Of a stretch of 64,000 nucleotides of DNA, positions 697 to 28,521 are shown piece after piece. Made by a program: the position numbers and the translations under genes. Source of the DNA: Gammaproteobacteria bacterium (GTDB lineage: Bacteria; Pseudomonadota; Gammaproteobacteria; Ga0077536); NCBI GenBank assembly GCA_016191285.1, contig JACPPA010000057.1, positions 977 to 64,976 of the forward strand, in the 5' to 3' direction. The number at the start of each line of letters is the position of its first letter. The stretch's first letter is position 1. The notes under the pieces are model-generated. The model searched no databases, had not been told where the DNA came from, and saw only the letters and a program-made list of their open reading frames with translations.

Positions 697-1953
697 ATGA
701 ATGCGCCGACGCAACCGAATTGGGCGCATTTGGTTCGCGCCGATCACGTACACGGATCGCTCTATACCGATCCCACAATCTTTCACGCCGAGCTTGAGAA
801 GATCTGGTATCGCACCTGGGTGTATGTCGGCCACGTGAGCGAAGTGCCGAAGGCGAACGATTTCGTCATGAAGTCGATCGGTCCACAAGCCGTGCTGATG
901 ACGCGCGACAAAGCGGGCGCGATTTACCTTTTGCAAAACCGTTGTAGCCATCGTGGCAATCAGGTTTGTCAGCAACAAAAAGGCAACACCGCGACGTTCA
1001 CTTGCCCTTATCACGGCTGGGCTTTCGCCAACACCGGCGAGTTGCGCGGCTACCCATTCCCCGCCGGCTACGCTGGGGTAGACAGGCGCGAACTCGGCTT
1101 GGGGCGAGTTCCGCGACTCAGCGTTTATAGAGGTTTTGTGTTCGGTTCCTTTGCGCCTGACGGACCGACACTAGAAGAACACCTCGGCGGCGCGCGTGAG
1201 GCGATCGATCGCTTGGTGCGCACGTCACCAGCGGGCGAGATCGAGATCACCGCCGGCTTTCTCAAGCATCAAACACGCGCCAACTGGAAATTCCTCGTCG
1301 AAAACGAAACCGACGGCTATCACCCGCAATTCGTACACCGGTCGATCTTCAGCGTGGCGAAAAGCGGTATCGGCGATCTCTACAGCGATGCGTCGAGCGC
1401 CGTGGCGCGCGATCTCGGCGGCGGTCATTCAGAGAATGATCTACGTCCGGAATTCCGCCGCCTCGACGCGCCGCTTGGGTGGTTCGGCACCACGGCCGAC
1501 CGGCTGCCAGACTACGTCGCCAAAATGAATACGGCTTACGGCGCCGAGGACGCGCGCAAGATCCTCGTCGATGGCACGCCACACACGATGATTTTCCCCA
1601 ATCTCTTCATCGCCGAGATTCAACTATTCGTGCTCCAGCCGTTGGCCGTGGATGAAACCGTGCAACACGTCACGGCGCTGCAATTCAAGGGCGCGCCTGA
1701 TCTGAACCGTCGCCTGCGCCAACAGACCATGGGCTCGGTCGGCCCGGCGGGCTTGCTGCTCGCCGACGACGCCGAGATGTACGAGCGCACCCAACGCGGG
1801 GTGCAAACGCGTGAGCCGCCTTTTCTATTTCTTGGTCGTGGGCGTCATCGTGAACGGCGCGATCCCGAGGGCTTTCTGATCGGCGATGCCACCGATGAAG
1901 TGCCGGCGCGTGGCATGTGGCGCCACTATCGGGCGTTGATGGAAGCCGAGTGA
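697..1953 (+). CDS. Rieske non-heme iron ring-hydroxylating dioxygenase, alpha (large) subunit
   Basis: Rieske motif CSHRG...CPYHGW; NWK..ENE.DGYH catalytic-domain region; stop overlaps the beta start (TGATG). Confidence 0.9.
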   Translation: MNAPTQPNWAHLVRADHVHGSLYTDPTIFHAELEKIWYRTWVYVGHVSEVPKANDFVMKSIGPQAVLMTRDKAGAIYLLQNRCSHRGNQVCQQQKGNTATFTCPYHGWAFANTGELRGYPFPAGYAGVDRRELGLGRVPRLSVYRGFVFGSFAPDGPTLEEHLGGAREAIDRLVRTSPAGEIEITAGFLKHQTRANWKFLVENETDGYHPQFVHRSIFSVAKSGIGDLYSDASSAVARDLGGGHSENDLRPEFRRLDAPLGWFGTTADRLPDYVAKMNTAYGAEDARKILVDGTPHTMIFPNLFIAEIQLFVLQPLAVDETVQHVTALQFKGAPDLNRRLRQQTMGSVGPAGLLLADDAEMYERTQRGVQTREPPFLFLGRGRHRERRDPEGFLIGDATDEVPARGMWRHYRALMEAE

Positions 1954-2444
1954 TGGCATCGATGACGGTGAATAGCGAACTGCTGCGCGAGATTGAGCAG
2001 TTTCTGTATCGCGAGGCGCGCCTGGCTGATGATCACGACTACGATGCGTGGGAGGCGTTGTGGACCTCTGACGGCGTCTATTGGATCCCCGCGAACGGTG
2101 ATGACGGCGATCCCGAACAGGTGATGTCGATCGTCTACGACAATCGTTCGCGAATCGCGCTCCGCATCAAGCAGCTAAACACGGGTAAACGCCACAGCCA
2201 GAATCCACGCTCCAGGCTGCGGCGCATGATCTCCAACGTCGAACTTCTTTCGAGTGCAGAAGACGAACTCCACGTGACAGCCAACGTGTGCGTGTTTGAA
2301 TCCAATGCGCGCGGGGACATCACGTAGGCATCACGCAATGAGTATCGTCTGCGCCGGATCGGTGGCGAACTTCATATGGCTTACAAAAAGGTTGCGCTCG
2401 TCAATAATGACAAGGCCCTGTATTCGCTATCCTTTCTGATTTGA
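1953..2444 (+). pseudogene. Ring-hydroxylating dioxygenase beta (small) subunit interrupted by an in-frame TAG at 2325-2327. Reading through gives 163 aa ending ...RLRRIGGELHMAYKKVALVNNDKALYSLSFLI.
   Basis: ATG at 1953 overlaps the alpha stop; SnoaL/NTF2-like beta-subunit N-terminus (EQFLYREARLADDHDYDAWEALWTSDGVYWIP); the frame stays open for 38 codons after the TAG to a TGA at 2442-2444, and total length matches typical beta subunits. Confidence 0.7.
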
Positions 2445-2458
2445 TAGGGGTTGTTATT

Positions 2459-2492
2459 GTGGGAGCCGCTTTGAGCTTCGAATCTTCGAAGC
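2459..2492. repeat. Partial copy (one arm) of the GTGGGAGCCGCTTT... REP-like palindromic element
   Basis: gtgggagccgctttgagcttcgaatcttcgaagc; the same variant arm recurs at 52028-52052. Confidence 0.6.
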
Positions 2493-2584
2493 ACGAGCGC
2501 GCGCAAAGATTCGATGTCACTGCGAGCGCCCCATACACCCCGCTTCGGGACCGCAACCTATCCAAGACGAGCGAGACCTCTCGT

Positions 2585-2608
2585 CCCCTCGCCCCGCGCG
2601 GGAGCGGG
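2585..2608. terminator. GC-rich hairpin (cccctcgCCCCGCGCGGGAGCGGg) between convergent genes; the identical 16-mer recurs after eutC
   Basis: Inverted repeat with palindromic CCCGCGCGGG core; sits between the beta-subunit end and the convergent DUF1840 gene. Confidence 0.35.
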
Positions 2609-2657
2609 TTAGGGTTAGGGAGAAAGATTGCTTCGTCGAGGATTGATTTGATGACTG

Positions 2658-2966
2658 CTATTTATCCCACATGACATAGGATTCTGCCGTGATGGCGTTA
2701 GTCAGCATGGCGATTAAAGGCGCCGCGCGTTGATGTAAGCTGACCTTCGGTTCGTTCTCGTCATCGTCATCGACTGCGGTCCCTGCTGCACGCGGAGGCG
2801 CAGTCTCTAGCGCTTGTCGCAAGCGGGCGAGTGCCGCGGGGACGTCCTCGGCCGCGAGCGCTCCGGGAATGCCGCCGCCATGACCCATGAGTTTGATCAA
2901 TTGCGTGGCCACGTCACCGAACATCGTAAAAGCAGCCGAATTCTTGCTTTGGAAGCTTACCAACAT
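2658..2966 (-). CDS. DUF1840 domain protein
   Basis: Internal ATG at 2966 gives MLVSFQSKNSAAFTMFGDVATQLIKLMGH..., the typical DUF1840 N-terminus; the longer ORF-track start at 3131 is judged a spurious extension. Confidence 0.7.
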   Translation of the reverse strand: MLVSFQSKNSAAFTMFGDVATQLIKLMGHGGGIPGALAAEDVPAALARLRQALETAPPRAAGTAVDDDDENEPKVSLHQRAAPLIAMLTNAITAESYVMWDK

Positions 2967-3204
2967 GGGACGATTCTCCGTTTCCAAATAGCCGTGGCGC
3001 GGCCGATATCTGGGTGATCGGGCGCACCGATCGGTCGCCATTCCGATATTATCCGCCCGCGTTCTTAACCGCACTATTGATCTGGCCTTTGTGTGGCGTG
3101 GGGCAAACGCTAGCCGCCGAGCTCGAACCACAGGGTTAGCGGTGCGCTCAGCGCGATCGAATCACGGTACACTCACCAAAAATGCTTGGGAAAAAGGCGA
3201 TTGA

Positions 3205-3765
3205 ATGAATACTGAGAAAATCTCCCGTCTGGTGCGCGAACTCCTGATCGAATTAAATGAAGATCCCGAGCGCGAAGGTCTGCAAAAAACTCCGCAGCGA
3301 GTCGCGAAGGCGCTTGAGTTTTTGACTTCGGGCTATCGCACCGATCCGGTCAAATTGATCAACGGCGCGGTGTTCGAGCAGAAGACCAACAGCATGGTCA
3401 TCGTCAAGAACATCGAGGTCTACAGCCTGTGCGAACACCACATGTTGCCGTTCTTCGGACGCTGCCATATCGGTTATTTGCCCAGTGGACGCGTGTTTGG
3501 CGTGAGCAAGCTCGCGCGATTGGTCGATATGTACTCCCGCCGCTTGCAGCTGCAGGAGCGCCTGACCGAGCAGATCTCGCAGGCGCTGATGGACTCGATC
3601 GACGCCACGGGAGTTGGCGTGCTGATTGAGGCCCAGCATCTGTGCATGATGATGCGCGGCGTCGCGAAGCAGAACTCGGTGATGATCACGTCCTCGGTGG
3701 TCGGCACGTTCCGTGATTCGGCCACCACCCGCGAGGAATTCCATGCGTTGATCGGAACGCGCTAG
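3205..3765 (+). CDS. folE: GTP cyclohydrolase I
   Basis: 186 aa; conserved CEHHMLPFFGRCHIGYLP...GVSKLARLVDMYSRRLQLQERLT. Confidence 0.92.
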   Translation: MNTEKISRLVRELLIELNEDPEREGLQKTPQRVAKALEFLTSGYRTDPVKLINGAVFEQKTNSMVIVKNIEVYSLCEHHMLPFFGRCHIGYLPSGRVFGVSKLARLVDMYSRRLQLQERLTEQISQALMDSIDATGVGVLIEAQHLCMMMRGVAKQNSVMITSSVVGTFRDSATTREEFHALIGTR

Positions 3766-3863
3766 TCTTGTCCCGTTGTCCTTCTTTCGCCGTCGTTGTA
3801 AGCCCGGCGAAGCAATCTTTCCCCCTCTCTCCTTGCGGGAGGGCCGGGGTGAGGGGGTGTGGA

Positions 3864-4952
3864 ATGGAAATTCAACTGGCATTGCGCTGGCAAATAGGCA
3901 GCAACCCGGTCGAAGAATTACCGGCGGACCTCGTTCGACTGCTGGACGGCGTTGAACGCGGCGGCAATCTGCAATTTGCCGCCCGTGAGACCAGGATCTC
4001 TTACCGCCATGCGTGGGGTCTGGTCAAACATTGGGAACAGCGCTTCGGATGCGGTCTCGTGACGCTGGAACGCGGTCGTGGTTCGAACCTAACCCCGGCG
4101 GGCGAATTACTGCGCGCGGCATGGCATAAGACGCAAGACCGTACCGCGGTCATGTTGGCGGAAGCTGCCGCGCAAGCGGCACGGCAATTGGAAGCGATGG
4201 CGCACGAACCTGGGGTTGCGTCGCTTGTTCTCGCGGCGAGTCATGGTTTTGGCCTGACCACGCTGGTTACGTTGCTGCGCGCGTCGAAGGTCATGCCAGA
4301 GCTGCAAATCGTCGGCAGCGAAGAAGCGCTTAAGCGCTATGCGGCAGCGCAGGCCCAGGTCGCCGGTTTTCATTTGCCGCAGGGGCCGCACGGTAAGAAA
4401 CTGTGGGCGCGCTTTCAACGCTATCTCGACGCACGGCGCGACATGCTGCTGTTAGTCGAAACGCGCGAGCTTGGATTCATGGCCAAGCGTGGGACGCCGC
4501 GCCTGGCCGTTGAAGACATCGCCGCGAAGCAACTGCGATTTCTAAATCGCCAAGCGGGGTCCGGGAGCCGTCTGGTGTTCGATTTGTTGCTGGCGGATGC
4601 CGGAATTAAACCGGCGCGGATCGCCGGCTATCACAACGAAGAGTACACGCACAATGCAGTGGCGGCGGTAATCGCAGGCGGTGCGGCCGATGTTGGTTTT
4701 GGGGCTCGCACGGCCGCCGAGCAATTTGGTCTGACGTTTTGGCCCGAGGTCACAGAGAAATATTTACTGGCGGTGGCGCGCGAGGCGCTGCCGCGCAAAC
4801 CATTTTCGGCGTTGCCGCGTTTATTGGCGGGGGCGGCGTATAAGCGACTCTTGGCCGGCATCCCCGGCAGCGACAGCCGGGCCGCGGGTAAGGCGATCGA
4901 ACTCAAACAGGTCGCGGCACTTATCAACGCCAACTTGCCACGCACTCAGTAA
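3864..4952 (+). CDS. Winged-HTH (ModE N-terminal/LysR-like) transcriptional regulator with a C-terminal periplasmic-binding-protein-like domain
   Basis: ATG at 3864 (MEIQLALRWQIG...ETRISYRHAWGLVKHWEQRFG...LTPAGELL) matches ModE-type N-terminal HTH; ~270-aa PBP-like C-terminal region; start chosen over upstream alternate start at 3768. Confidence 0.55.
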   Translation: MEIQLALRWQIGSNPVEELPADLVRLLDGVERGGNLQFAARETRISYRHAWGLVKHWEQRFGCGLVTLERGRGSNLTPAGELLRAAWHKTQDRTAVMLAEAAAQAARQLEAMAHEPGVASLVLAASHGFGLTTLVTLLRASKVMPELQIVGSEEALKRYAAAQAQVAGFHLPQGPHGKKLWARFQRYLDARRDMLLLVETRELGFMAKRGTPRLAVEDIAAKQLRFLNRQAGSGSRLVFDLLLADAGIKPARIAGYHNEEYTHNAVAAVIAGGAADVGFGARTAAEQFGLTFWPEVTEKYLLAVAREALPRKPFSALPRLLAGAAYKRLLAGIPGSDSRAAGKAIELKQVAALINANLPRTQ

Positions 4953-4963
4953 ATTGACGATCC

Positions 4964-6115
4964 TCATGAGGTCCCGAATTCCCGCTGCCGCCGCCGCGAG
5001 ATAATGTGATTCATGATTTCCGCGGTGCCATCGCCAATTTCGAGCCCCATAACATCGCGCAGGCGTTGCTGATGCTTGGTCGCGAGGTCGTAACCCGCGT
5101 GTCCGTGCAGCAATAGGCATTTGTGGATGGCCTCGAAGGCGCTGAGCGGCGCCAGGCGTTTGCCCATCGCCGCTTCCACCGTGTGCGGCAAACCGGCATC
5201 GCGCAGCCGCAACGTGTGATAACAAAGCTGACGTGCGGCTTCAACATTGGTCTCATGTTCGGCGAGCGCGAAACTCACGCCTTGGAAAGAACTCAACGGC
5301 GCGCCGAAGGCTTCGCGCTGATGGACGTAGTCCCAGGTCTCATCGAGCGAGGCTTGAGCGGCCGCGAGACATTGCAGGCCAATCAGCGCGCGCGAGTAGT
5401 CAAAGCCCTGCATGACTTGCCCAAAGCCCTCACCTTCCGCACCAAGCCGGCGTGTCACCGGCACGCGAACACTATCAAAAAATAGTGAGCCACGTCCTGA
5501 CGCGCGTCCACCGACGCTAGAGAGGCGCGTGGTACTGATACCGGGGGCGTTGGCATCCACCAGGAACGCACTGACACCACGCGCGCCAGACTGCGGTTCG
5601 CCGGTCCGCGCGAACACCACAAAGCCGTCCGCTTGATCGACTAAGGTAATCGAAGTTTTCTCGCCGTCGAGTACGTAATCATTACCATCCCGGCGCGCGC
5701 GCAACACCAAGTGTGCCGCGTCCGAGCCGCCGCGCGGTTCCGTGAGCGCAAGTCCCACCACGGCTTCACCGCGACACATCCGCGGCAACCATTCAGCCGC
5801 GAGCGCCGGGGTCGCGTGATCGACCAAAATGGCGCCACACAGCGACGCGATGATCTGCACATAGCCGATATTGATGTCGGCATACGCCACCGCTTCGACC
5901 AGCAGGCCTGCCGTTTCTCCCGAAAGGCCGAGACCACCGTAGGCCACTGGCAATTCGGAGCCTAAGAGACCCAGGTCGCCGAGTTCACGCACCAACGCGC
6001 GTTCGAATGATCCCTCAACCTCGCGAGTCTGGTATCCCTGCGCCAAGCGTTCGCGCGCAAAGTGTTGCGCGGCTTCATACACACTGCGCTGCTCGTCGCT
6101 TAAGACTCGATTCAT
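4964..6115 (-). CDS. Acyl-CoA dehydrogenase family protein
   Basis: 383 aa; ACAD N-terminal, middle and C-terminal pattern (…GSELPVAYGGLGLS…, …IYEGTSEIQ-like C-terminus). Confidence 0.88.
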   Translation of the reverse strand: MNRVLSDEQRSVYEAAQHFARERLAQGYQTREVEGSFERALVRELGDLGLLGSELPVAYGGLGLSGETAGLLVEAVAYADINIGYVQIIASLCGAILVDHATPALAAEWLPRMCRGEAVVGLALTEPRGGSDAAHLVLRARRDGNDYVLDGEKTSITLVDQADGFVVFARTGEPQSGARGVSAFLVDANAPGISTTRLSSVGGRASGRGSLFFDSVRVPVTRRLGAEGEGFGQVMQGFDYSRALIGLQCLAAAQASLDETWDYVHQREAFGAPLSSFQGVSFALAEHETNVEAARQLCYHTLRLRDAGLPHTVEAAMGKRLAPLSAFEAIHKCLLLHGHAGYDLATKHQQRLRDVMGLEIGDGTAEIMNHIISRRRQREFGTS

Positions 6116-6136
6116 GGCTAACTCCTGAGAAAAGAA

Positions 6137-6904
6137 TCAGGCGGCGGACATGCCGCCGTCGATGGGAAAGGTGGTGCCGGTGCAGTAACTGCTCTCGTCG
6201 CTCGCCAAGAACAACACTAACTGGGCAACCTCTTCCGGCGTGCCGTAGCGGCGCAGTGGCACGCCGGCCGCGATTCGTGCCTTGGCCTTGTCTGGTGCGC
6301 CGGGCGCGTAGCCTGCTTCAATGGCCGCGATCATGCGGGTGGCGATGGGCGACGGATTGATGGTATTCACGCGAATATTGAGCGGTGCGCATTCGAGCGC
6401 CGCCGAACGCATGATGCCAACCACGGCATGTTTAGCTGCGATGTACGGCGCCATTTTCGGCATGCCTTTGAGGCCGCCGAGTGACGAGGTGATGATAATG
6501 CTGCCGCCGCCGGTTTTCGTCATCGCTGGGATCACGGCCTGCATGCCGAGCCACACCCCGCGCACGTTAACCGCCATCACACGGTCGAACATGGCGAGGG
6601 GATAGTCGACGATTGAATGTACGCTGCCTTCAATTCCGGCGTTGTTGAAAAACACATCGATCCGGCCATGGCGATCAAGCGCGGCTTTCACGTACGCGTT
6701 GACCTGTGGTGGGTCACTAACGTCGGCCACCACCGCACTCGCGTGGCTTTCGCCCAGTTCAGCGACCGCCGCGGCCAGTGCGTCCTGCTGGACATCGACG
6801 AGCAACACCTTGGCGCCCTCGGCTTTGAATAGACGTGCGGTGGCGAGCCCTATCCCTGCTGCACCACCGGTGATGATGGCAATCTTACCGGTCAGTCTGG
6901 CCAT
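6137..6904 (-). CDS. SDR family oxidoreductase
   Basis: TGGAAGIG glycine motif, NNAG, S...YxxxK catalytic set. Confidence 0.9.
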   Translation of the reverse strand: MARLTGKIAIITGGAAGIGLATARLFKAEGAKVLLVDVQQDALAAAVAELGESHASAVVADVSDPPQVNAYVKAALDRHGRIDVFFNNAGIEGSVHSIVDYPLAMFDRVMAVNVRGVWLGMQAVIPAMTKTGGGSIIITSSLGGLKGMPKMAPYIAAKHAVVGIMRSAALECAPLNIRVNTINPSPIATRMIAAIEAGYAPGAPDKAKARIAAGVPLRRYGTPEEVAQLVLFLASDESSYCTGTTFPIDGGMSAA

Positions 6905-6988
6905 AGGCTTCGCTCCGAATTTCTATATTGAAGTGGGTGGATTGTAATCAATCCTTTCCACCCACCGCTAAGGAGAGCGCGAGTCGGC

Positions 6989-7547
6989 TTGGCAATCCCT
7001 CGCACCGAGCCGCACCCAATCTTACGACGGGTGCACTGTCCGGCGCCCCGCCGAATAATCGACTGGCGGTTCCGACGATTCCTTCACGCCACTTGCCCGC
7101 CGGAGGAGCGCGAGTGGCTGGAACAGAAATACCCAGGCTGGAACGCGACGTGGGGCAAGGTGTGGGATGAGGCTACGAACAACTTGCTCGCCGGTCGGGA
7201 GGAGCTGACGCTCGCCAATACGCTGCCGTTGATCTGCAACCTGTGTCAGCTGCCGATCGTGCAGACGCCGGGCGAGTCGTGGAAACCCGAGGATCACATG
7301 TTAGTGTACGCGGGGCGGCGCTATTACTTTCAGTCGCATGTCGACAAGTGGGTGTTCCAGCAGAATCCGCGGCGTTACGGTGAGCACAAGTCGCTGGTCG
7401 ATCGCGCGGCGGCCGGCGAAGTGCAGCCGCCGACGTTCGAGGGTGCGCTCAACTACATGGGGCTCGCTCGGCCCTCACGAGCGCGATTACGACGCCAACA
7501 ATTACGCGTGGCTCGAGAGTTTTCGACGCAAGCTGCGCGCGGCCTAA
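6989..7547 (+). pseudogene. Fragment homologous to the C-terminal (YHS-like) ~150 residues of a soluble di-iron monooxygenase alpha subunit; frameshifted near 7455
   Basis: EEREWLEQKYPGW..GKVW, LPLICNLCQLPIV and HMLVYAGRRYYFQSHVDKWVFQQNPRRY parallel the intact alpha (25804-27327) at ERDFDWFEKKYPGW..GKFW, LPTLCRVCHMPGV and RLIDGRKHAFCSAACEHIFREEPHRY; homology continues in frame 0 (PHERDYDANNYAWLESFRRKLRAA* versus PHLDDHRRWTLDDIRALKIE); no N-terminal catalytic domain upstream. Confidence 0.5.
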
Positions 7548-7939
7548 GCCAGCGCGACCTACGAAGGGTGAATAGATCGCTGGTCGCGAAACCCGCACTC
7601 GACGAGTGTGTGGCCCGCCAATTCGGCCGTGCCGCACGCGCCCACCAAGACACCCTGACCGCGATCTTGACCGACGCGCACTTGAAAGACGTGGAACGCG
7701 CACGGCGCTGGACCACGGCGTTCGTCCACTACGGGTTGTCGCAAGCTGAGAACGTGGCAGTGGTCGCAGAGTGGGTCGCACGCTGGCAACCGTTGGCCGA
7801 TCGCGCCATCGACGCCTGGTGTGCCGGACACGGCGGCCGCCGCGCGCGAGGATCGGTTGTTGCAGTGCCGCGTGCACAACGCGTTGTGAGGTAATTCACG
7901 GGCGATTATGCTCGCCGGATCCCGATAGATCGCGCCGCC

Positions 7940-10382
7940 GTGCAATCACCGCTCATTGCCACCAAGTTTGTCCCCCCCGGGCGTGCCGGCGCGCTGGTCG
8001 AGCGTCCATAGCTGTATGCGCGATTAGCCGCTAGCGCTGAGCGACGGTTGGTGTTGGTCAGTGCGCCCGCCGGTTCCGGCAAGACCAGTGCGCTCGCACA
8101 CCTCTACCACGAGCTCGGTAATAGCGACGCCGATGTTGCGTGGTTATCACTCGATGCCGATGACAACGAGCTCGCGCGTTTTCTCGCCTATGTAGTGGAG
8201 AGGCGTTGCGGCGTCGGCATGCACTGTTCGATCAGGCCACGTTGGCCCTGCTCGGTTCCGGTCCCAATCTGCCGCCCGCGATCCCGCGCAATGCTTTTCT
8301 GAACGAGATGGGGGTCTTCACGCAGCCTTGTCACTTGTTTTTCGACGATTGGCATGTGATCGGCGACGCCGAAGTCGAATCCACCGTGGAGCGTCTGTTA
8401 CTCGCGCCGTTGCCGAATGTGCACCTGTGGCGCGCAACCCGCAGCCCCGGACGCTTGCCGCTTGCGCGCCTCCGGGCGCTGGGCGATTTGGATGAGTTGG
8501 GGTCCGCTGAACTTGCATTCAGCGCCGCCGAGGCGGCGCGCTTATTCGATCTCGCCGCCGACGTCACCCTCGCACACCGCAACGTCGGCGACTTTTTGGC
8601 CGATGAAGTGTTTCGCCGCCAGGAACCCGAGTTGCAGACGTTCCTGCTGCAGACTTCCATCCTCCGTCAGTTCAGTACCGCGCTGTGTACCGCGGTCACT
8701 GGCCGCCCTGACGCACGACGGTTCCTCGATCTGATCGAAGCGCGCAACCTTTTTCTGTTTTCACTCGACAGCGAACGCGGCTGGTACCGCTACCACCATT
8801 TATTTTCGGATTTTCTGCGCAAGCGCTTGCATGAGCAGGACACGATTGCCGCCGTTGAGTGTCATCGCCGTGCGTGCGACTGGCTGAGCGGCAATGGATT
8901 TCGCGTGGACGCCATCGAGCACGCCTTCGCCGCGGCCGATCATGAGCGCGCCGGCGCCTTGTTGGATGCGGCCAGCGCCGAGTTGTCGTGGCAGTTCGAT
9001 GTGGCCCGCGCCGCGCTAGCTGACGCGCGGTGCGCTTTGGGGTCTCGTACTACGAGTCTTGCCGCCGACGACCCTGAATCGTTTTTCTGCGCGACGATTT
9101 GGGTACCGCGCTTGATCTCAGCCAGCAATGGTTAGAACAACGGCGCAGTGTAGATGCCATGATGGAGGCTTCGGCCGGCTCGATGTTGATGGCCGCGAGC
9201 CGCGAACACTTCAGCGTCACCGGAGTCAGCGCGAACGCCGCACAATTGCATCAACGCTTCGTCGACGGTGGCGCTATTTACGGCACCGTGTTCCACGACT
9301 CGATCGCGGGCTGCACGCTGTACATGCGCGGCGATCTCGAGGCCGCGGCGGCCGAGTATCTTCGCGCGCGACGCACTGCGATCCAGCTACATGGCGAAGG
9401 TTCGGTACTCGCCGCCATGCCCTCGTCGATGCTCGCCGAGCTGTGGTACGAGCACGATCGAATCGACGACGCACGTGCGCTGATCGCGCGCTACGCGCCG
9501 CTACATGGCGAACTTGGTTTCGTCGATAACCTCATCGCTGTGCACCTGACTGCCGCGCGCCTCGCGGTGCTCGATGGTGACGTCGCGCGTGCCGAACGTG
9601 AGCTGGAAGACGCCGAGCAAGCGGCGTTCTGCTACGGTTTCGAGCGCATGCTCGCCTGCATCCTCGACGAACGCGTTCGACTGGCGCTAGCGGCTGGCGA
9701 TAGTGTGCGAGCCCGCCGGCTGCTCGATGCGCCGCGCTGGCGACCCTGGCTGGAGCATCCAAAGCCGCACGCGCATTCCAATACCATCCAAATGATTGTC
9801 GTGTGTGCGGCGCTGCGGCTCGTACTCGCGGAGGGCATTGGGCAGGATGATGCGCGATTGCTGCGGGCTTGGTTTCGGCATGCCGCCGATCGTCATTGTG
9901 AGCGTGCGGCGGTACGTCTTGGCATGTTGCTGGTTCGCACTCTTGCCCAACGCGAAGGCGAGCTGGCCGCGCGGCGCGCATTGCGCGAGGTGATCGCGCT
10001 CGCTGCCCGCGGTGGTTTCGTGCGCAGCGTGGTCGACGAAGGCCATACCTTGCATGCCCTGCTCGCCGGTCTCGCGACACAAGCTGCTGAGACTAGCGCG
10101 GACGAGGCCAGCTATCTTCGGCGTCTGCTGGCCGCCTTCGGCCGTGAATCGGAACCGGCGGATACCACTGGCACGTCCGATGGCGCTGACGTGGGTCGGC
10201 GCGAACGCGAATTACTCGCGCTGGCGGAGAACGGTCTCGACAATCGCGACATCGCAGCGCGATTGGGACTCGCCGAGAGTACGGTCAAATGGTATTGGCA
10301 GCGCATCTTCACCAAGCTCGGCGTGCATCGTCGCACCCAGGCGTTGCACAAGGCGCGCCGGCTCGGCCTGCTCGAAGGGTGA
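7940..10382 (+). pseudogene. MalT/LuxR-family (AAA ATPase + TPR + LuxR HTH) transcriptional regulator, disrupted by an in-frame TAG at 8009-8011 and at least two -1 frameshifts (near 8195-8210 and 9050-9110)
   Basis: N-terminus SPLIATKFVPPGRAGALVERP*LYARLAASAERRLVLVSAPAGSGKT (Walker A); middle and TPR region spread over frames 2, 1 and 0 (ORFs 8048-8302, 8206-9135, 9099-10382); C-terminal LuxR HTH (LGLAESTVKWYWQRIFTKLGVHRRTQA). Confidence 0.7.
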
Positions 10383-10495
10383 GCGGAAGCAACGCTGTGA
10401 ATCGGGGAGCGAAATAATTTCTAATCCACAGCGCGGTGCGTAGTTTCGCGATTAGTGTTAACGCGCGATAGGTCGAGCTCCGAAACTGAACTCCG

Positions 10496-10972
10496 TTATC
10501 CCTGAGTCTCGATCCAAGTCGCGACCGCCGCGCAGAATGTGGTGAAATCGCCGGTACGTACACTCGCAAGTTCATATAGACGGTCGAAATCGACGACGCC
10601 ATATTGATGCGCGAGTAGATTCCGTAGTCCCGTTGCGGCCCGCATCCGGACGGCGAGATCGGACCCCAGAACGCCGTGATCGGCGAGCACGGTGAATGAT
10701 TCCGCGTACGTTTTCGGCACGCCCCAACCCGCGTCGGCCAACACGTGCGATGCAAGCGCCACACACTCTTGAATCGCGACAAACAGATTTAGCGCGACGA
10801 CTTCGCGCGCGGTACGATCGGCGCGAAATGCATCCAGCGTTCGGGGCAATATCGCGTGCATCCGCTCGACCGCGTCGCGGATCATGGCAATTTTCGCCGC
10901 CAGGACCGCGCTATCGACCACGCGCTGCCGCCGTGATAACGCCCCGCGCGCATAACGCTTCGAACGGCGCAA
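10496..10972 (-). CDS. hepT: HepT-like (DUF86) toxin of a type VII HepT/MntA toxin-antitoxin pair; true start probably downstream of the ORF-track start
   Basis: RNLLAHQY (Rx4HxY) motif; overlaps the 3' end of the upstream nucleotidyltransferase gene. Confidence 0.7.
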   Translation of the reverse strand: MRRSKRYARGALSRRQRVVDSAVLAAKIAMIRDAVERMHAILPRTLDAFRADRTAREVVALNLFVAIQECVALASHVLADAGWGVPKTYAESFTVLADHGVLGSDLAVRMRAATGLRNLLAHQYGVVDFDRLYELASVRTGDFTTFCAAVATWIETQG

Positions 10973-11303
10973 AGTCTAGATATTCGAGGATCGCGCGAAC
11001 TTTGCGCGCGACGAAGGCGCGATGGTTGTGTTCCACAAGTAGTTGCCCTTCAGCGAATATCCGGTAAGCAACGGCAGGCGGCGCTTCATCCGCCAAGACT
11101 AAGTCGATCGCATGCCCAGTGTCGCGCTCCAGATCGGCCGCCAGTTCGCCCAGCTCCTGAACCGACATCCGCGCGTCGGGCTCAAACCCGAGCGCGATGT
11201 CCAAGTCACTTGCTTCGCTAGCGCTCCCCCGCGCTCGCGAACCGAACAGCAGCGCGTAGGCGATGCGGGGATCGGCGCGGAGTCTGGCAGTTAGTGCATC
11301 CAT
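10911..11303 (-). CDS. mntA: MntA-type nucleotidyltransferase antitoxin
   Basis: GSRARGSASEASDLDIA (GSx10DxD) minimal nucleotidyltransferase motif; 130 aa; directly upstream of and overlapping hepT. Confidence 0.8.
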   Translation of the reverse strand: MDALTARLRADPRIAYALLFGSRARGSASEASDLDIALGFEPDARMSVQELGELAADLERDTGHAIDLVLADEAPPAVAYRIFAEGQLLVEHNHRAFVARKVRAILEYLDFAPFEALCARGVITAAARGR

Positions 11304-11494
11304 ACTAAAAATGTAGCACAGCCCGCTACCGCGGGGCTGCTTTCCCCTGTCGATTTTCGAATTAGCGCGAGCCGCTTGATCGATTGCCCCAGCGTCGAGG
11401 CGATAAGCTTAAGGCGGACAGACCGCCTGATCGCGGCCTGTCATGAATAGGTTGACCGTTTCCAAGCGCATTTCCGATAAGTAACATCCACCAG

Positions 11495-12475
11495 ATGCGC
11501 ATCGCACTTTGCAGCCGCGGTTTCACACGGCTCTTCCAAATTCTGACCGAGTACCTACCTGATGATGAACTCATCGAGTGTGTCGACAGTGAAGTGATCG
11601 CCATCGCCAAGGAGGTGGATGTGTTCATTCCGGTGGTGGCGCGGATCCCCGCGGCGGCGTTTGCGGCGCCTCGCCTCAAACTCGTACAGCAATATGGGGT
11701 TGGCCTCGACAGTATCGATATTCCGGCGGCGACGCGCGCCGGGGTGTTGATTGCGAACGTGCCGAGCGTCGGGACCGGCAACGCCGAGTCAGTGGCCGAA
11801 CTCGCCATCGCGCACATGCTGATGCTGTCACGACAGATGCCGACCGCATGGCGCCGGTTTCGTGAGAAGCGCCTTAGTTCGCCACTCGGTAATTGTTTGT
11901 GGCGGAGCACCGTGCTTATTCTCGGCTACGGCGGGATCGGCGAGGAAATCGCGCGCCGCCTGATGGGGTTTGGCGTGCACCTTATCGCGGTGTCGCGTCA
12001 CGGGCCGAGCAGGGCGCGCGATCATGATCCGGCGGTGCACGTCGATTTGCATGTTGGCGCCGAGGCGCTCGGCGAGGTGCTCGGCGAAGCGGATTATGTG
12101 GTCGTCGCGGCGCCGGCGTCGCCGGAAAATATTGGGCTCGTTAGCGCTGCAATGTTCGCGCGGATGAAACCGGGCGCGTACATCGTCAACATCGCGCGAG
12201 GTCCGGTGATCGATTACGACGCACTGCTCGCCGCGCTGCGGGAAGGCCGAGTCGCCGGCGCCGGGCTGGACGTGTTCTGGCAGGAACCCTTCGATCCAGA
12301 CGATCCGCTGCTTAACGAAAACGTGATCGCTACACCTCATGTGGGCGGCGCGACGGAACGCAGCCTGACGGGAATTGGTAAAGCGGTGGCGGCGAACATC
12401 GACCGCATACGTCGCGGTGAATTACCGCTGTGTTGCATCAACCCGGAAGCGGGGCGGAGCAGGCTTCGCGGTTAG
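11495..12475 (+). CDS. D-isomer-specific 2-hydroxyacid dehydrogenase family (NAD-binding)
   Basis: GYGGIGEEIARRL glycine-rich NAD motif; VNIARGPVID...ATPHVGGAT catalytic region. Confidence 0.88.
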   Translation: MRIALCSRGFTRLFQILTEYLPDDELIECVDSEVIAIAKEVDVFIPVVARIPAAAFAAPRLKLVQQYGVGLDSIDIPAATRAGVLIANVPSVGTGNAESVAELAIAHMLMLSRQMPTAWRRFREKRLSSPLGNCLWRSTVLILGYGGIGEEIARRLMGFGVHLIAVSRHGPSRARDHDPAVHVDLHVGAEALGEVLGEADYVVVAAPASPENIGLVSAAMFARMKPGAYIVNIARGPVIDYDALLAALREGRVAGAGLDVFWQEPFDPDDPLLNENVIATPHVGGATERSLTGIGKAVAANIDRIRRGELPLCCINPEAGRSRLRG

Positions 12476-12522
12476 TCAGTGTGCCCGTGCAACGGCCTTC
12501 GAGTAATCATCGCCTTGATTTC

Positions 12523-12586
12523 GTAGGAGCCGCCTTAGCGGCGAATCTTCATCGCGAGATCTATTCGCGGATAAAGCCGGTTCCAC
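12523..12586. repeat. REP-like palindromic element, degenerate copy
   Basis: gtaggagccgccttagcggcgaatcttcat...attcgcggataaagccggttccac; arms pair with mismatches. Confidence 0.6.
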
Positions 12587-12638
12587 AACAGCAATGCGCC
12601 GATTAATCGCTGGGGTTGACGTCGCGTAGCCGCGCATT

Positions 12639-12703
12639 GTGGGAGCCGCTTTAGCGGCGAACAGGACATTCGAAGGAAGATTCGCCGCTAAAGCGGCTCC
12701 CAC
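12639..12703. repeat. REP-like palindromic element, canonical copy
   Basis: gtgggagccgctttagcggcgaac ... attcgccgctaaagcggctcccac; 23-bp perfect inverted arms. Confidence 0.8.
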
Positions 12704-21246: not shown

Positions 21247-22197
21247 CTACCGTTGGCCTAATTCCCTCAGGCCCGGTAATGCCATTGGCGGCGGCGCGGG
21301 CTCGTTGACAGTTTGAGCGCCGCGCCGGCTGCGCTGGGCAGGCGTCACTTGTTCACGCCGCCTATGGTTCGGCGCAAAGACGCCGTGGTAACGCGTAAGA
21401 GCCTGCCCCGGACTTGATCCGGGATTGACTCTCGGCGTCGGCACCAGGGCTGCGAGTCGAGCAATGAAGTCGAATGGCTCGAACACCCCGTCCGTCGTGC
21501 CATCCCGGTAAGGGGTCTTGAGGCGGTACCGAACGTGGCCTTGAGTCGTTAACGACAACCGCTCAGTCGAGACTGCCGGGCGTGATATAGCGGCACAGGC
21601 GCTCTAGTTTCTCGCGTTCATGTGCCTCGCTCGTCATCCCGGTGTGTAACGAGAACCCGGCTGCTTTCGCGACCGAATTGTTGTCCTCTACTGCGGCGAC
21701 TGCCGGCAGCGTCTGCAAGGCAAACGCTTTGCGACCCTGGCGCGGGCCGAGCGCAATCCGGTAAGTAACGGAATGACCCAAGAGATCATCGAAGCCCGCG
21801 CCGTCAGGCGAGTCCGCAGTCAAAAAGCTATTCTTCAAGACCCGTACCAGCAGGCATTGGTCTTCGAGTGCGCGGCCAACCCGCTCACTGATGGCGCGAA
21901 TCAATTTAAGTTTTTCCGAGCGAGGGTCGGATGACAGTAGATAAGTCTCCGGCACCCACCGCAAACAATCGAATAATCGAATCTCCGGCACCAGTTACTC
22001 CTGTGCCGCGTGAAGCGCACCGTCTCGTCATTCCGGAAGTCGCGCAGCGACTTCCGGAATCTATCGCCTTGCGGTAGTCGTGTATCAGGGGCGGTCACAA
22101 CTGTTTGTGTGCCGCACTCGTCGCAGAACTTCGCGGCAGGCGAAGTTAGCTCCACAGGCAGCGCCGACGCGATTTTTTTAGCGAACCGCGCGGACAC
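21247..22197 (-). mobile_element. ISCR/IS91-family rolling-circle (HUH Y2) transposase remnant: 5'-degraded and frameshifted between ORFs 21563-21991 and 21247-21558
   Basis: YRIALGPRQGRKAFALQTLP, GFSLHTG, KLERLCRYITP, then in another frame LKTPYRDGTTDGVFEPFDFIARLAALVPTPRVN...LTRYHGVFAPNHRRR. These match ISCR1-type transposase C-terminal half motifs (LEQLCRYITRPA, LKLKTPWRDGTT, FMQRLAALVPRPR, IRFHGVLAPN) as recalled from memory. Confidence 0.65.
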
Positions 22198-22387: not shown

Positions 22388-22630
22388 ATGACAACAGCCA
22401 CCCTCACGAGCAAGGGGCAGATCACAATCCCTGTCGAAGTGCGTCAAGCCCTAGGTGTGGATACCGGTGACCGAGTGGAATTTGTTGAGGTAGCGCCTGG
22501 GCGCTACGAATTCATCGCAGCCACGCGGTCAGTCACTGCATTGAAAGGCATGTTCGGCAAACCCCGCAAAACGATATCGATTGAGGAGATGAATACAGCC
22601 ATCGCCAGGCGTGGCGTGGCCGCCAAATGA
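22388..22630 (+). CDS. vapB: AbrB/MazE/SpoVT-family antitoxin (VapB-like)
   Basis: 80 aa; SKGQITIPVEVRQALG swapped-hairpin motif; stop overlaps vapC start (ATGA). Confidence 0.8.
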   Translation: MTTATLTSKGQITIPVEVRQALGVDTGDRVEFVEVAPGRYEFIAATRSVTALKGMFGKPRKTISIEEMNTAIARRGVAAK

Positions 22631-23022
22631 TGGGGCTCGATACTAACGTTGTGGTGCGCTACATCATGCAGGACGACGTCAAGCAGGCTCTGAAGGCTAC
22701 GCAGCTTATCGAATCGCTTTCTGCGGAGGAACCTGGCTTCGTGCCGCTGATAGTGATCGTGGAACTCGGGTGGGTACTGTCATCGGCGTACGCACTCAAT
22801 AGAGACCAACTTTTCGAAGCATTCGAGGGGTTGCTTCGAACCAAAGAATTGATCGTTGAGCGCGCGGAAATCGTGTGGAAGGCGTTGCGCGTTTTTCAAA
22901 CCGCAAACGCGGATTTCGCAGACTCCCTGATTACGTGCTCTGCGGCAGCCGCCGGATGCGCGAGGATAATGACCTTCGATCGCGTCGCCGTAAAAAGCGG
23001 CGGTATGTCGCTGCTAGCTTGA
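22627..23022 (+). CDS. vapC: PIN-domain ribonuclease toxin VapC
   Basis: 131 aa; LDTNVVVRY N-terminal acidic residue, PIN fold pattern, conserved D near the C-terminus. Confidence 0.85.
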   Translation: MMGLDTNVVVRYIMQDDVKQALKATQLIESLSAEEPGFVPLIVIVELGWVLSSAYALNRDQLFEAFEGLLRTKELIVERAEIVWKALRVFQTANADFADSLITCSAAAAGCARIMTFDRVAVKSGGMSLLA

Positions 23023-23431: not shown

Positions 23432-24454
23432 TCAGACCGCCGGGTGAAACTTATCGTAGAAAAGATGATCGGCGCGAATTCCTTTTGCTTCTAAAAGTGT
23501 CCCAACCGCGTCACACATCGCAGGTGCGCCACACAGATAGGCGTCGAAGGGTCTTGCGTCGCCGAGAGCGCGCTGTAAGGCGTGCGTCACCCGGCCGCGT
23601 TGTCCATTCCAGTCGGCGCTGCCTCGCGTGAGACTTGGTACGTAGCTCAGGCGCGAGCCCATGAGCTCCTGCAGTTCAGCCAACTCGTGCTGGCAGGGTA
23701 AGTCCTCGTTAGTTCGCGCGCCATAGTGGAAAATAAAGGGACGCTGATCATTGCGTTCGGCCGCGGCCGCGAGGATTGATAGGATCGGAGAGAGTCCCGA
23801 TCCGGTCGCGCACAGTAGCACCGGCTCTGCACCCGCCCGCAGATAGCTCGTGCCGAAAGGCCCGCGTACCGCAAAGCGCTCGCCGATCGCGAGCACCGGT
23901 AGCTGGCTCGAGAAAGCACCTTCAGGGACCCGTTTGATGATGAACTCTAGGGCGAAGGGCCTCGAAGGTGATGAGGCGATCGAGTATGACCGCCGCAACG
24001 CTGCCCACGGTGGCGTCAATTCGACGAATTGACCTGGATAGAACGGCAGTGGTTCCGATAAGGTCAGCACCAGTCGCCAGAGTGCCGAAGTGAGCTGCGC
24101 GATGCTCTCAACTTCGGCCACGACGTCGCGCGGCAATAGCATCGGTGCAGCGCGCGCATCAGAACCCCCCTGTCCCTCAATAACGAGATCGCTCGCCGGC
24201 CGTGCGCAGCACAATAGTGCGTAACCTTCCTCACGCTGGGCTTCGCTTAGCGAGTAAATTGACGCCCCACCGTGATCGACGTCGCCTTCTTGCAGAAAGT
24301 ATTTGCAGCTCGAACAGTTGCCGTGACGGCAGCCGTAATTGAGAGCGACGCCTTGGCGCAAAGCGGCATCGAGCACGGATTCGTTCGCCGAGACCTCGAA
24401 GCTCGTGCCGTCTGGGTCGATGCGTGCCCGATAAGTGCTTATAGCTTGACTCAC
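23432..24454 (-). CDS. Soluble di-iron monooxygenase NADH oxidoreductase component (N-terminal plant-type [2Fe-2S] ferredoxin + FAD/NAD-binding domain)
   Basis: CRHGNCSSCKYFL...LCCA ferredoxin motif; FNR-like flavin and NAD domains; GTG start overlaps the coupling-protein stop (GTGA). Confidence 0.88.
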   Translation of the reverse strand: MSQAISTYRARIDPDGTSFEVSANESVLDAALRQGVALNYGCRHGNCSSCKYFLQEGDVDHGGASIYSLSEAQREEGYALLCCARPASDLVIEGQGGSDARAAPMLLPRDVVAEVESIAQLTSALWRLVLTLSEPLPFYPGQFVELTPPWAALRRSYSIASSPSRPFALEFIIKRVPEGAFSSQLPVLAIGERFAVRGPFGTSYLRAGAEPVLLCATGSGLSPILSILAAAAERNDQRPFIFHYGARTNEDLPCQHELAELQELMGSRLSYVPSLTRGSADWNGQRGRVTHALQRALGDARPFDAYLCGAPAMCDAVGTLLEAKGIRADHLFYDKFHPAV

Positions 24455-24765
24455 GCGGACGTTACAGGCTCAAAGTCGAGCATCTGCGAGGTCACCCGAA
24501 ATGTTCTCGGATCGGTCATCACGCGGCCGACGAAACTCGACATCACCACCAGCCAGTCCCCGAGCGAGATGAATTCACCCAACTCCTGACCGACCCGGTC
24601 GAGATCGATCACGATCTCGTCGTCGCGCGTCGCGATCATCCAATACGGACCTAGATCTTCGATCCCGATCCGCGGGTGATCGGCGCGCAACACATCCAGG
24701 GTCGCGTCGGCCTCCGCGCTTTTGATCAAGACCACGGCCACGCGGTTACTTTCTGCTACTGACAT
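24451..24765 (-). CDS. Monooxygenase coupling/effector protein (MmoB/DmpM family)
   Basis: 104 aa; MmoB/DmpM-like sequence; SD AGGAGA; overlaps the beta-subunit 3' end by 20 nt. Confidence 0.85.
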   Translation of the reverse strand: MSVAESNRVAVVLIKSAEADATLDVLRADHPRIGIEDLGPYWMIATRDDEIVIDLDRVGQELGEFISLGDWLVVMSSFVGRVMTDPRTFRVTSQMLDFEPVTSA

Positions 24766-25807
24766 GGTCGTCTCCTGGTGAGGTCAGTCCGCACGAGGCG
24801 ACTAACTTGGTTTGGGCGGCCGCCGCCGCTTCGACCAGTGATTCGATCGCAAACAGGGGCTGTGGAATTTGTCGCGCAATCGGTGCGAACGCGGCCGCTG
24901 CCGCCAGTGCTTGGGGCCGCCAGCGCGCTAACCACGTCTGCAACACGCTCCGGTTCTCGGTCGCCGCCGGGCAATCCGCCGCGGTCACCATGCGCACGAA
25001 CTCCGCAGTCCACGCAAGATTGCGCCGACGGTCGCGTTCGGCACTCGTGACGATGAAGGGCGTAATTGAATCGCCATTCAATGCCGATGGCTTCCGCACC
25101 AAGTCACCCAGCGCGACTTCGCTCACGAGCGGTGCAACCACGAGATTGACCGCGACCGCAAGCTCGGCCCAGTCGGTGCACACGATCAAGCGTTCAACCA
25201 ATTGGCGCGCCGGTTGGTAGGCAGGATCAGAGAGCCAGCGCGCCTTCGCGTCACCCTCGCGGAAGCTCGGCACCGACTCTTCGATGGCAAGCAAATGACT
25301 CACGATGGCCTGTCCATGACGCATGTGATCGAAAGCCTGGAAACACAATGCGTTGCCGAGCGTATCGGACAGCGCCTCGCGCTGCGCTGTGGCAAACGCC
25401 CGAAACAGACCGTATTCGAAGAAGGACCATACGCGATAATGGCCAGCAAGGATTCGATCGCGCCAAGTGGGCTCGATGGCCGTAAAACTACCGTCAGCTG
25501 CCGCATCCTCGGCTAACCGCTCGATGGCGCGCTCCTGCTCGGCTTGCATACGTATATACGTACGTTGCCAGTGTTGCGCCGGATCGCGAAACGCAAACCA
25601 GTTCGGGTGAGCGAGCGCGGTTGATTCGGGCCGCCACGGCGCGCGCCCATCGGGCGCTAGTAGAAAGTGCCCACCCTTGTCGAAGCCGCCGGTCTCCCAT
25701 TGCTGATGGACAGTCACCGCTTCGTACTCGGTGAGGCGACGTTTGCGCGGTTTGATGAAGATGAAGTCGCGTCGTTCGTTGCTTGCGAGGTTGATCTGGG
25801 CGTTCAT
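24746..25807 (-). CDS. Soluble di-iron monooxygenase hydroxylase beta (small) subunit
   Basis: 353 aa; ferritin-like beta-subunit pattern; ATG overlaps the alpha stop (ATGA). Confidence 0.85.
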   Translation of the reverse strand: MNAQINLASNERRDFIFIKPRKRRLTEYEAVTVHQQWETGGFDKGGHFLLAPDGRAPWRPESTALAHPNWFAFRDPAQHWQRTYIRMQAEQERAIERLAEDAAADGSFTAIEPTWRDRILAGHYRVWSFFEYGLFRAFATAQREALSDTLGNALCFQAFDHMRHGQAIVSHLLAIEESVPSFREGDAKARWLSDPAYQPARQLVERLIVCTDWAELAVAVNLVVAPLVSEVALGDLVRKPSALNGDSITPFIVTSAERDRRRNLAWTAEFVRMVTAADCPAATENRSVLQTWLARWRPQALAAAAAFAPIARQIPQPLFAIESLVEAAAAAQTKLVASCGLTSPGDDHVSSRK

Positions 25808-27327: not shown

Positions 27328-27486
27328 AGGATTCCCCGCAACTTGATGAGTGGTAGGTGCGACCCGCGGTGTTGGGATGCTCCCACTCGCCGCTAATTTC
27401 GCCTGCGGTGCACGATAGGGGGTAACGAATTGACAAAAAACAGCTCCGGGTGACATTGTTGTTGTCGTTTGGTGACGATGTGAGCG

Positions 27487-28521
27487 ATGCGCCCATCCGA
27501 AATCGACCGCCTGCTGATGCCAAACACTTACGTCAAACAACTGGCGCAGGAGTTCGGCGATCACGCGCGTCTCACTGCCGGCACAGGTATCGCATCCACC
27601 GAGATCGAGCACTACGCGAAACCCGTCACCGTCGCGCAGCATCTGCAGGTCGTGCGCAACGCGTTAGCCATCGCTGAGCGCCCAGAGTGGTATCTGCAAT
27701 GGGGCCAACGCATGGGAGAACATTTTCACGGCGCCGTCAGCGCGGCCTGGCTCAGCGCGCCGACTTTAGGCGCGGGCCTCGATGCATTCCTGAAATACAT
27801 TCCAAGCCGAGTACCTTACCTGCATTGGCAAGGGCATCGCGATGACGAGACGTTCTGCGCCGAGGTCACGGAGTTGGTTGACCTCGGACCCGTACGCGCC
27901 ATGCTGATCGAGGTTCCGATGATCGTGATGCACGAGTACACGCGAACGATCCGCCCGGGTTCCATAGCCGGGGCGCGGATCGAGCTTGCCTACCGGCCGA
28001 CGCCGCACTGCTACCTCTACTCCAACTGGTTCCAGTGCCCGGTGGCGTTCGAATCGTCGCGCAATGCGCTGGTGATCCCGCACCAGTGGCGTGCGATCGA
28101 TAACGTCGGCTTCGATGAAGGAGTGTGGCAGGCAGCGCTGGCTCGCTGCGAGATTCTATGCGCGACGACGGAGGAACGAGATGCCCTCACGAGGGTTCGA
28201 CAGCTGCTGTTCGATGGCTTCGAGCGGCGGCTCAACGACGGCTCACCGCCGAGCCTGGAGACGGTCGCGGAGCGCTTGCATTGCTCGGCGCGTACCTTGA
28301 TTCGCCGACTGCGGAGTATGGATACCACTTATCAGCAGGTCATCGACGAAGTGCAGCAGCAGCGCGCACGCGAACTACTCAGCAATGAGCGGCTACGCAT
28401 CCACGAAGTCGCTGCGGCCCTGGGCTATCAAGACGCCGCGGGGTTCGTTCGTTCTTTCAAGCGCTGGTATGGTATGACGCCCGGTGATTATCGCAAGCAG
28501 ATCGTGGATCCACCGCTCTGA
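27487..28521 (+). CDS. AraC/XylS-family transcriptional regulator, divergent from the monooxygenase operon
   Basis: C-terminal double HTH (RLRIHEVAAALGYQDAAGFVRSFKRWYGMTPGDYRK); about 160-bp shared intergenic region with the alpha gene; TTGACA at 27430-27435 on the + strand. Confidence 0.85.
   Translation: MRPSEIDRLLMPNTYVKQLAQEFGDHARLTAGTGIASTEIEHYAKPVTVAQHLQVVRNALAIAERPEWYLQWGQRMGEHFHGAVSAAWLSAPTLGAGLDAFLKYIPSRVPYLHWQGHRDDETFCAEVTELVDLGPVRAMLIEVPMIVMHEYTRTIRPGSIAGARIELAYRPTPHCYLYSNWFQCPVAFESSRNALVIPHQWRAIDNVGFDEGVWQAALARCEILCATTEERDALTRVRQLLFDGFERRLNDGSPPSLETVAERLHCSARTLIRRLRSMDTTYQQVIDEVQQQRARELLSNERLRIHEVAAALGYQDAAGFVRSFKRWYGMTPGDYRKQIVDPPL

Follow-up and report, generated by a model that had tools for sequence, protein, structure and literature searches.

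Background

The closest described relatives of the locus reported here are, for its enzyme genes, the group-2, four-component soluble diiron monooxygenases (SDIMOs) represented by TouA/TouE (PDB 1T0Q) and TmoA/TmoE (PDB 3DHG), in which the α subunit precedes the β subunit on the same strand, as it does here, and, for its regulatory gene, the large ATP-binding LuxR-family (LAL) regulators, for example MalT of E. coli and AlkS of P. putida. The MalT/LAL regulators have the domain order that we also find in this locus: a P-loop STAND NTPase, a MalT winged helix, a TPR region and a GerE/LuxR helix-turn-helix. To our knowledge, a regulator of the LAL/MalT type has not been described or characterised for toluene monooxygenases, and a full-text search of the literature on MalT/LuxR-type control of toluene or diiron monooxygenases yielded no relevant paper. 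Here we analyse a stretch of 64,000 nucleotides (hereafter the window, to whose numbering all positions refer unless another locus is named) from a gammaproteobacterial metagenome-assembled genome (MAG; GCA_016191285.1, contig JACPPA010000057.1, positions 977 to 64,976). We conclude, with a probability of roughly 0.9, that positions 7100-10382 of the window are the non-functional remnant of a group-2 SDIMO operon of the toluene/o-xylene monooxygenase type, together with the accompanying LAL/MalT-type activator gene.

Results

Tails of the α and β subunits

The first recognisable element of the locus is the C-terminal tail of an α subunit (Table 1). Its reading frame is 2 as far as ~7465; from 7467, frame 3 leads to the native stop codon at 7545-7547. 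When the two frames are joined and the repaired tail is compared with PDB sequences using phmmer, it matches TouA over residues 352-498 of 498 (E=5e-52) and TmoA over residues 352-493 of 500 (E=4e-46); of the full-length TouA/TmoA homology, only residues 352-498 are represented. By tblastn the remnant is 55-59% identical to the TmoA proteins of two other loci, L003 and L002. Its closest relative among the species-representative genomes searched is the intact α subunit of locus L004, with 83% amino-acid and 80% nucleotide identity. The DNA similarity to L004 sets in abruptly at 7103 and runs to ~7552, slightly beyond the α stop codon, and the protein and DNA homologies both stop sharply at 7100-7103. 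We found no match to α residues 1-351, and hence none to the diiron catalytic domain, anywhere in 6001-8200 using tblastn, and the open reading frame (ORF) at 6989-7894 contains no ligand-bearing region, that is, no diiron four-helix bundle with its two E...EXXH motifs. The C-terminal domain itself, with its KYPGW motif, CxxC loop and YHS-like segment, is split between frames 2 and 3, and the same ORF gives a weak match to the Pfam YHS family (PF04945) of 25.1 bits, below the gathering cut-off of 30.3.

An earlier reading of this DNA, made from the sequence alone, had recognised an α C-terminal fragment parallel to an intact α subunit encoded 18 kb away in the window (25804-27642, minus strand), without a catalytic domain upstream of it, and our analysis bears out both points. 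Residues 439-543 of the intact protein match 7064-7378 in frame 2 (tblastn, E=4e-9, 26% identity), which was the only comparison on which that reading drew for the origin of the fragment; the closer relatives match far better (55-83%), and L004, at 83%, is the nearest of them. The jump in frame that it placed near 7455 is real, but lies at 7462-7469, where a 4-nt tandem duplication is seen relative to L004. Removing one GCTC copy restores ...YMGLGPHERDYDANNYAW..., and in L004 both halves of the sequence share one frame.

Behind the α tail lies a second remnant, which the inventory of the sequence-only reading had overlooked: the C-terminal tail of a β subunit. It matches TouE over residues 223-320 of 330 (E=1.4e-20) and TmoE over residues 217-301 in the PDB comparison, is matched by residues 218-328 of the L003 TmoE (tblastn, E=2.7e-22) and is 63% identical to the L004 β subunit, while residues 218-300 of the intact β subunit in the window match 7568-7798 (tblastn, E=1e-3). 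The Phenol_Hydrox Pfam match in the ORF at 6989-7894 (profile positions 174-229 of 230, E=6.6e-7) belongs to this β tail. The ORF is a chimera that owes its existence to the lesions, composed of an unrelated leader, the α remnant, out-of-frame read-through and the β remnant. In the source MAG, where it lies on a contig of 82,658 bp, it is entered as a hypothetical protein of 244 aa (P0023, HYX63_23750).

The short junction between the two tails replaces ~1.3 kb of L004, in which the α gene ends at 10116 and the β match starts at 11420, and ~1.8 kb of tmoABCDEF operons; in other relatives the β match begins 1.7-2.2 kb downstream of the α end. Within 6001-8200, the genes for the γ subunit (tmoB), the Rieske ferredoxin (tmoC) and the effector (tmoD) give no match apart from a stray tmoC alignment (E=0.007) to the opposite strand, and tmoF, for the reductase, gives no significant match. 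TmoE is represented solely from residue ~217 onwards. The locus cannot give rise to an enzyme, as it lacks the iron ligands, the effector and the electron-transfer partners.

A disrupted regulator gene

A possible GTG start codon at 7940, 45 nt past the β stop codon, opens the second part of the locus, the regulator pseudogene. Among intact relatives, the closest is an ORF of 915 codons at 9494-12241 of L002, a Nevskiaceae MAG, with a best identity of 45%. The gene call deposited for this ORF (P0002, 746 aa) begins 169 codons late; the frame is open from the ATG at 9494, and the resulting 915-aa protein includes the whole NTPase domain. Using this protein as the tblastn reference, we mapped the lesions from three high-scoring segment pairs of 35-45% identity, in which reference residues 9-88 correspond to 7958-8197 in frame 2 (spanning the TAG), residues 89-458 to 8200-9080 in frame 1 and residues 475-909 to 9078-10358 in frame 3. 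The reading frames of the pseudogene run through 7940-8197 (frame 2), 8200-9080 (frame 1) and 9078-10382 (frame 3). The lesions were confirmed by alignment with six intact members of the same clade (907-916 aa), and all three deleted segments are present in 6/6 of these relatives. In place of a single continuous frame of ~900 aa we thus find three frames, one in-frame TAG and three deletions, and a full-length regulator cannot be made from this sequence.

The domains of the regulator can nevertheless be recognised. The Walker A (APAGSGKT) and Walker B-like (LFFDDWH) motifs of the NTPase are both in place, although its Pfam matches (nSTAND_NTPase5/AAA_16) are weak and the domain is broken by the TAG and a frameshift. 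WHD_MalT is recorded in the middle regulator ORF, and the sensor and helix-turn-helix regions are matched by TPR_MalT (PF17874, E=1.7e-19) and GerE (PF00196, E=1.2e-14). The Walker A motif, TPR region and LuxR helix-turn-helix reported in the sequence-only reading are therefore all recovered by Pfam and motif searches, as are, in the tblastn alignments, its distribution of the gene over three frames with two frameshifts and a TAG at 8009-8011. To that list of lesions we add three internal deletions (41, 37 and 16 codons), which it had missed.

Table 1 Features of the decayed locus, in window coordinates
Feature	Position	Strand	Description
Chimeric ORF	6989-7894	+	301 codons; from the ORF list
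α C-terminal remnant, group-2 SDIMO hydroxylase, TouA/TmoA type	7100-7547	+	Last 147 residues, equivalent to 352-498
4-nt tandem duplication	7462-7469	+	GCTC/GCTC; frameshifts the α remnant; lone 4-nt gap in the pairwise DNA alignment with L004
Junction between α and β remnants	7548-7577	+	30 nt, no homology to α or β gene
β C-terminal remnant, TouE/TmoE type	7578-7894	+	~Last 105 residues, frame 2, stop 7892-7894
Pseudogene of a ~915-aa LAL/MalT-type regulator	7940-10382	+	STAND NTPase, winged helix, MalT-like TPR, LuxR helix-turn-helix
Three partly overlapping ORFs, different frames	8048-8302, 8206-9135, 9099-10382	+	From the ORF list
In-frame TAG	8009-8011	+	ERP*LYARL vs ERPHL/ERPQL; relatives carry His, Gln, Glu or Arg
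First frameshift, frame 2 to 1	8195-8202	+	Equivalent to a 1-nt loss; reference residues 88/89 (...AYVVE / ALRRRH...)
In-frame 41-codon deletion	8575-8580	+	Reference residues 215-255; removes the clade-invariant LR..TEGW...LQ.A.IAL
In-frame 37-codon deletion	8965-8970	+	Reference residues 386-422
~16-codon deletion with frameshift, frame 1 to 3	9076-9084	+	Reference residues ~459-474
Undisrupted 3' part (TPR_MalT and LuxR helix-turn-helix)	9159-10382	+	Automatically annotated 407-aa gene, P0001, 100% identical

Genomic context and age of the decay

The locus is bounded by a divergent, intact SDR gene (6137-6904, minus strand) and by a HepT/MNT toxin-antitoxin pair (10496-11303, minus strand), and the neighbouring genes on either side give clean, full-length Pfam matches. 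We observed the same sequence in a second assembly: a contig of the Logan assembly of SRR12113392 (L001, 10,209 bp) matches positions 2460-12668 of the window at 100% identity and without a gap. All of the inferred frames keep a codon-position GC periodicity similar to that of the intact neighbours, which supports the frame assignments and suggests that the decay is fairly recent. Repeats at the deletion junctions do not exceed chance-level short matches, and the lone terminator-like site at the locus scores below the shuffled expectation.

Searching for synteny by way of the flanking SDR gene, we recovered no intact ancestral locus in a relative. A relative that carries the SDR gene paired with an acyl-CoA dehydrogenase gene (82% identity) has SnoaL and purD at the position of the remnant, and the remnant block is thus lineage-specific. 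A megablast search of PLSDB with window positions 5000-12500 gave no match.

Linkage of the regulator clade to tmo operons

The regulator belongs to a small clade: in a search covering 5.8 billion proteins, matches from outside the clade were less than 30% identical over most of the query. In the metagenome loci L071-L073 an intact clade member of ~900 aa adjoins a complete tmoABCDEF operon, from which it is divergently oriented. L070 has the same divergent layout; there the contig ends within tmoA, and the regulator gene carries a frameshift. The L070 regulator (972-1406 and 1405-3621) shows its apparent frameshift at reference residue 152, the copies in L071 and L072 from the same project being intact, and it represents either a sequencing error or another inactivated copy. 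The linkage is looser in L002, whose regulator lies 8 kb from a tmoA cluster, and in L074, where a TmoF-like reductase is encoded 2.6 kb downstream of the clade member.

We also observed a pair that resembles the one in the window. L062 carries, at positions 9145-10987, residues 1-65 of TmoA and, directly behind them in the same orientation, a regulator fragment starting at reference residue 384, which has two frameshifts, at positions unlike those in the window, and keeps an open 3' ORF of 333 codons. The sequences L062-L065, from four samples, are identical. This is a second, independent decayed TmoA-plus-regulator pair, in another lineage. An aldehyde dehydrogenase fragment lies upstream of it. 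The recurrent linkage of regulator and tmo genes supports a functional pairing, and we infer that the regulator in the window once controlled this tmo-type operon. That the sequence-only reading called it the operon's own regulator is well in keeping with the clade members that adjoin tmoABCDEF in L071-L073 and with the linkage in L070, L002 and L062-L065.

Other features of the window

The intact SDIMO cluster of the window (minus strand) has the gene order α, β, MmoB-like effector and reductase, with a divergent AraC-type regulator gene beside it at 27487-28521. The longest ORF for its α subunit has 612 codons, including a 5' extension of ~100 codons that is probably not translated. The cluster is bracketed by a C-terminal fragment of an IS91-family (Y2_Tnp) transposase (21247-21558), with broken ORFs upstream (region 21247-22197), and by a C-terminal fragment of a phage integrase (29285-29662). 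GC content is low at 18-21 kb and 29-30 kb, which, with the two fragments, suggests an old, decayed mobile island. A MazE-like/PIN toxin-antitoxin pair (22388-23022, plus strand) adjoins the IS91 fragment, just as the HepT/MNT pair stands directly downstream of the regulator remnant. Finally, a perfect 9-bp inverted repeat, GTGGGTGGA-N15-TCCACCCAC, at 6933-6965, ~30 nt upstream of the SDR start (6904, minus strand), may be an operator or a hairpin in the 5' untranslated region.

Discussion

We regard the locus as real but ordinary: an operon and an accompanying regulator gene that have been pseudogenised by ordinary genome decay. From the boundaries of the homology and the lesions, which are observed directly, we infer the order of events as follows. 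A deletion or rearrangement took away everything before α codon ~352, the diiron catalytic domain included, and a second deletion, of ~1.3-1.8 kb, did away with the small-subunit and effector genes together with the first two thirds of the β gene. The α tail was frameshifted by slippage that duplicated 4 nt. The lesions of the regulator, which comprise a nonsense codon, a frameshift of the single-base type, two in-frame deletions and one out-of-frame deletion, would have accrued thereafter.

Several observations weigh against this account. The MAG and the Logan contig were probably built from the same reads, so that their agreement replicates the assembly and not the sequencing. All of the regulator lesions (6/6) fall in the first 47% of the gene, for which the chance under a uniform model is ~0.02, a value calculated post hoc; with this distribution it is conceivable that the C-terminal part has kept a function. 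Across 58 TmoA-type loci of species-representative genomes, no regulator homologue lies within 10 kb, and the pairing is therefore clade-specific, not general; the linkage came to light when the search was centred on the regulator instead. Moreover, the regulator is divergent from the operon in L070-L073, whereas here it is co-directional and downstream, and the ancestral arrangement of operon and regulator is not directly observed.

An artefact, in which read errors or chimeric metagenome assembly would account for the lesions while the organism itself has intact genes, seems to us very improbable. The source is indeed a metagenome-assembled genome, and its sole replicate probably goes back to the same reads; however, two different assemblers agree exactly over 10.2 kb, and the lesions are untypical of short-read errors: truncations on the kilobase scale, a TAG substitution, a 4-nt tandem duplication and the loss of 123, 111 and ~48 nt. 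The junctions lack repeats that would promote mis-joins, the immediately flanking genes are intact, and similar decay is seen in four samples for the L062 lineage. The sequence-only reading had likewise argued for real decay, on the grounds that all indels in the window were concentrated here while the neighbouring genes were clean; the flanking genes are indeed intact, but the truncated IS91 transposase and integrase genes lie elsewhere in the same window. We consider it still less credible, to the point of being scarcely tenable, that the ORF at 6989-7894 is the gene for a genuine small protein of the YHS-domain kind or for a functional fusion of α and β tails. The ORF is open for all of its 301 codons and is annotated as a protein, and the databases contain a "toluene monooxygenase protein A" of 152 aa that matches YHS (P0024, 54% identical). 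This protein, however, starts at base 5 of a 5-kb contig (L003 5-463) and is followed by tmoB, tmoC, tmoD, tmoE and tmoF, so what we see is a TmoA that the end of the contig has cut short. The sole other protein match is the window's own product, and each relative checked in the genome scan has this stretch within a full-length α subunit or at a contig end. The 4-nt duplication also puts the ORF out of frame through the true α tail before it enters the β tail, and no promoter-like site was found for it. A free-standing YHS protein, for which the profile score is below the cut-off and the only small homologue is the product of a contig end, is accordingly rejected. The sequence-only reading had named beforehand a bona fide small protein of this length in related genomes as the finding that would speak against a fragment; the relatives yielded only the contig-cut P0024.

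A partial decay, in which the 407-427-codon 3' ORF (9099/9159-10382) is still expressed as an NTPase-less regulator and the rest is dead, is unlikely in our view, although it is compatible with the preferred explanation for the other parts of the locus. The six lesions lie in the first 1.14 kb of the regulator and none in the last 1.3 kb, and in the L062 lineage, too, an open 3' ORF of 333 codons has survived two frameshifts. Overproduced on its own, the C-terminal DNA-binding domain of E. coli MalT can activate transcription, which lends the idea some plausibility. On the other hand, a scan for promoter-like sites gave 0 sites, and there is no evident Shine-Dalgarno sequence or other obvious ribosome-binding site, before 9099 or 9159, and the L062 case was found by way of its open ORF, an ascertainment bias. 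Given that the GC periodicity is preserved everywhere, recency alone can explain the unbroken 3' half, and recent decay accounts for the lesion pattern equally well. The more probable reading is that the whole block, regulator included, is a pseudogenised remnant.

In practical terms, the annotated 244-aa "hypothetical protein" and the two or three separate regulator "genes" of the source MAG are pieces of pseudogenes, and metabolic or SDIMO surveys should list them neither as a second monooxygenase nor as YHS or LuxR-solo proteins. The locus shows that an aromatic/alkene monooxygenase system has been lost from a lineage that keeps a different, MmoX-like SDIMO. It also provides a lead, in that a LAL-type clade found recurrently beside tmoABCDEF is a candidate for a new kind of hydrocarbon-responsive activator. 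A bolder proposal, which we think improbable, is that the clade consists of dedicated effector-sensing activators of group-2 SDIMO operons in uncultured soil and groundwater Proteobacteria and that, in addition, expression of the 407-aa TPR-LuxR module here continues, giving a regulator without an NTPase that might act on other oxygenase genes, for example the intact MmoX-like cluster.

Comparison with described systems

Relative to TouA/TouE and TmoA/TmoE, the locus retains only the C-terminal tails of the two hydroxylase subunits; it lacks the diiron four-helix bundle as well as a TmoB-type subunit, Rieske ferredoxin, effector and reductase, and the α tail, unlike that of TouA or TmoA, is frameshifted. 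The nearest sequence, L004 (CAYOJP010000080.1, an uncultured gammaproteobacterial MAG), shares the lineage-specific motif YYFQSHVDKW with the α remnant, both being without the two Cys residues found in the TmoA-like sequence of L002. L004 differs from the remnant in having a complete 514-aa α subunit, an MmoB-like effector and a 335-aa β subunit; its contig has no regulator homologue. Compared with the MalT/LAL regulators, the regulator in the window has a broken reading frame and falls in a small clade of its own. The intact SDIMO in the window (23432-27642, minus strand) is a member of the same superfamily, and the C-terminus of its α subunit has the KYPGW motif and a weak YHS-like match; it is, however, MmoX-like (PDB 4GAM, E=5e-121) and only 26-29% identical to the remnants. 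Since the remnant is of group 2 and the intact α subunit is MmoX-like, the remnant did not arise by duplication of the intact cluster 18 kb away, and the earlier description of a second monooxygenase locus is upheld, with fragments that belong to the TouA/TmoA type.

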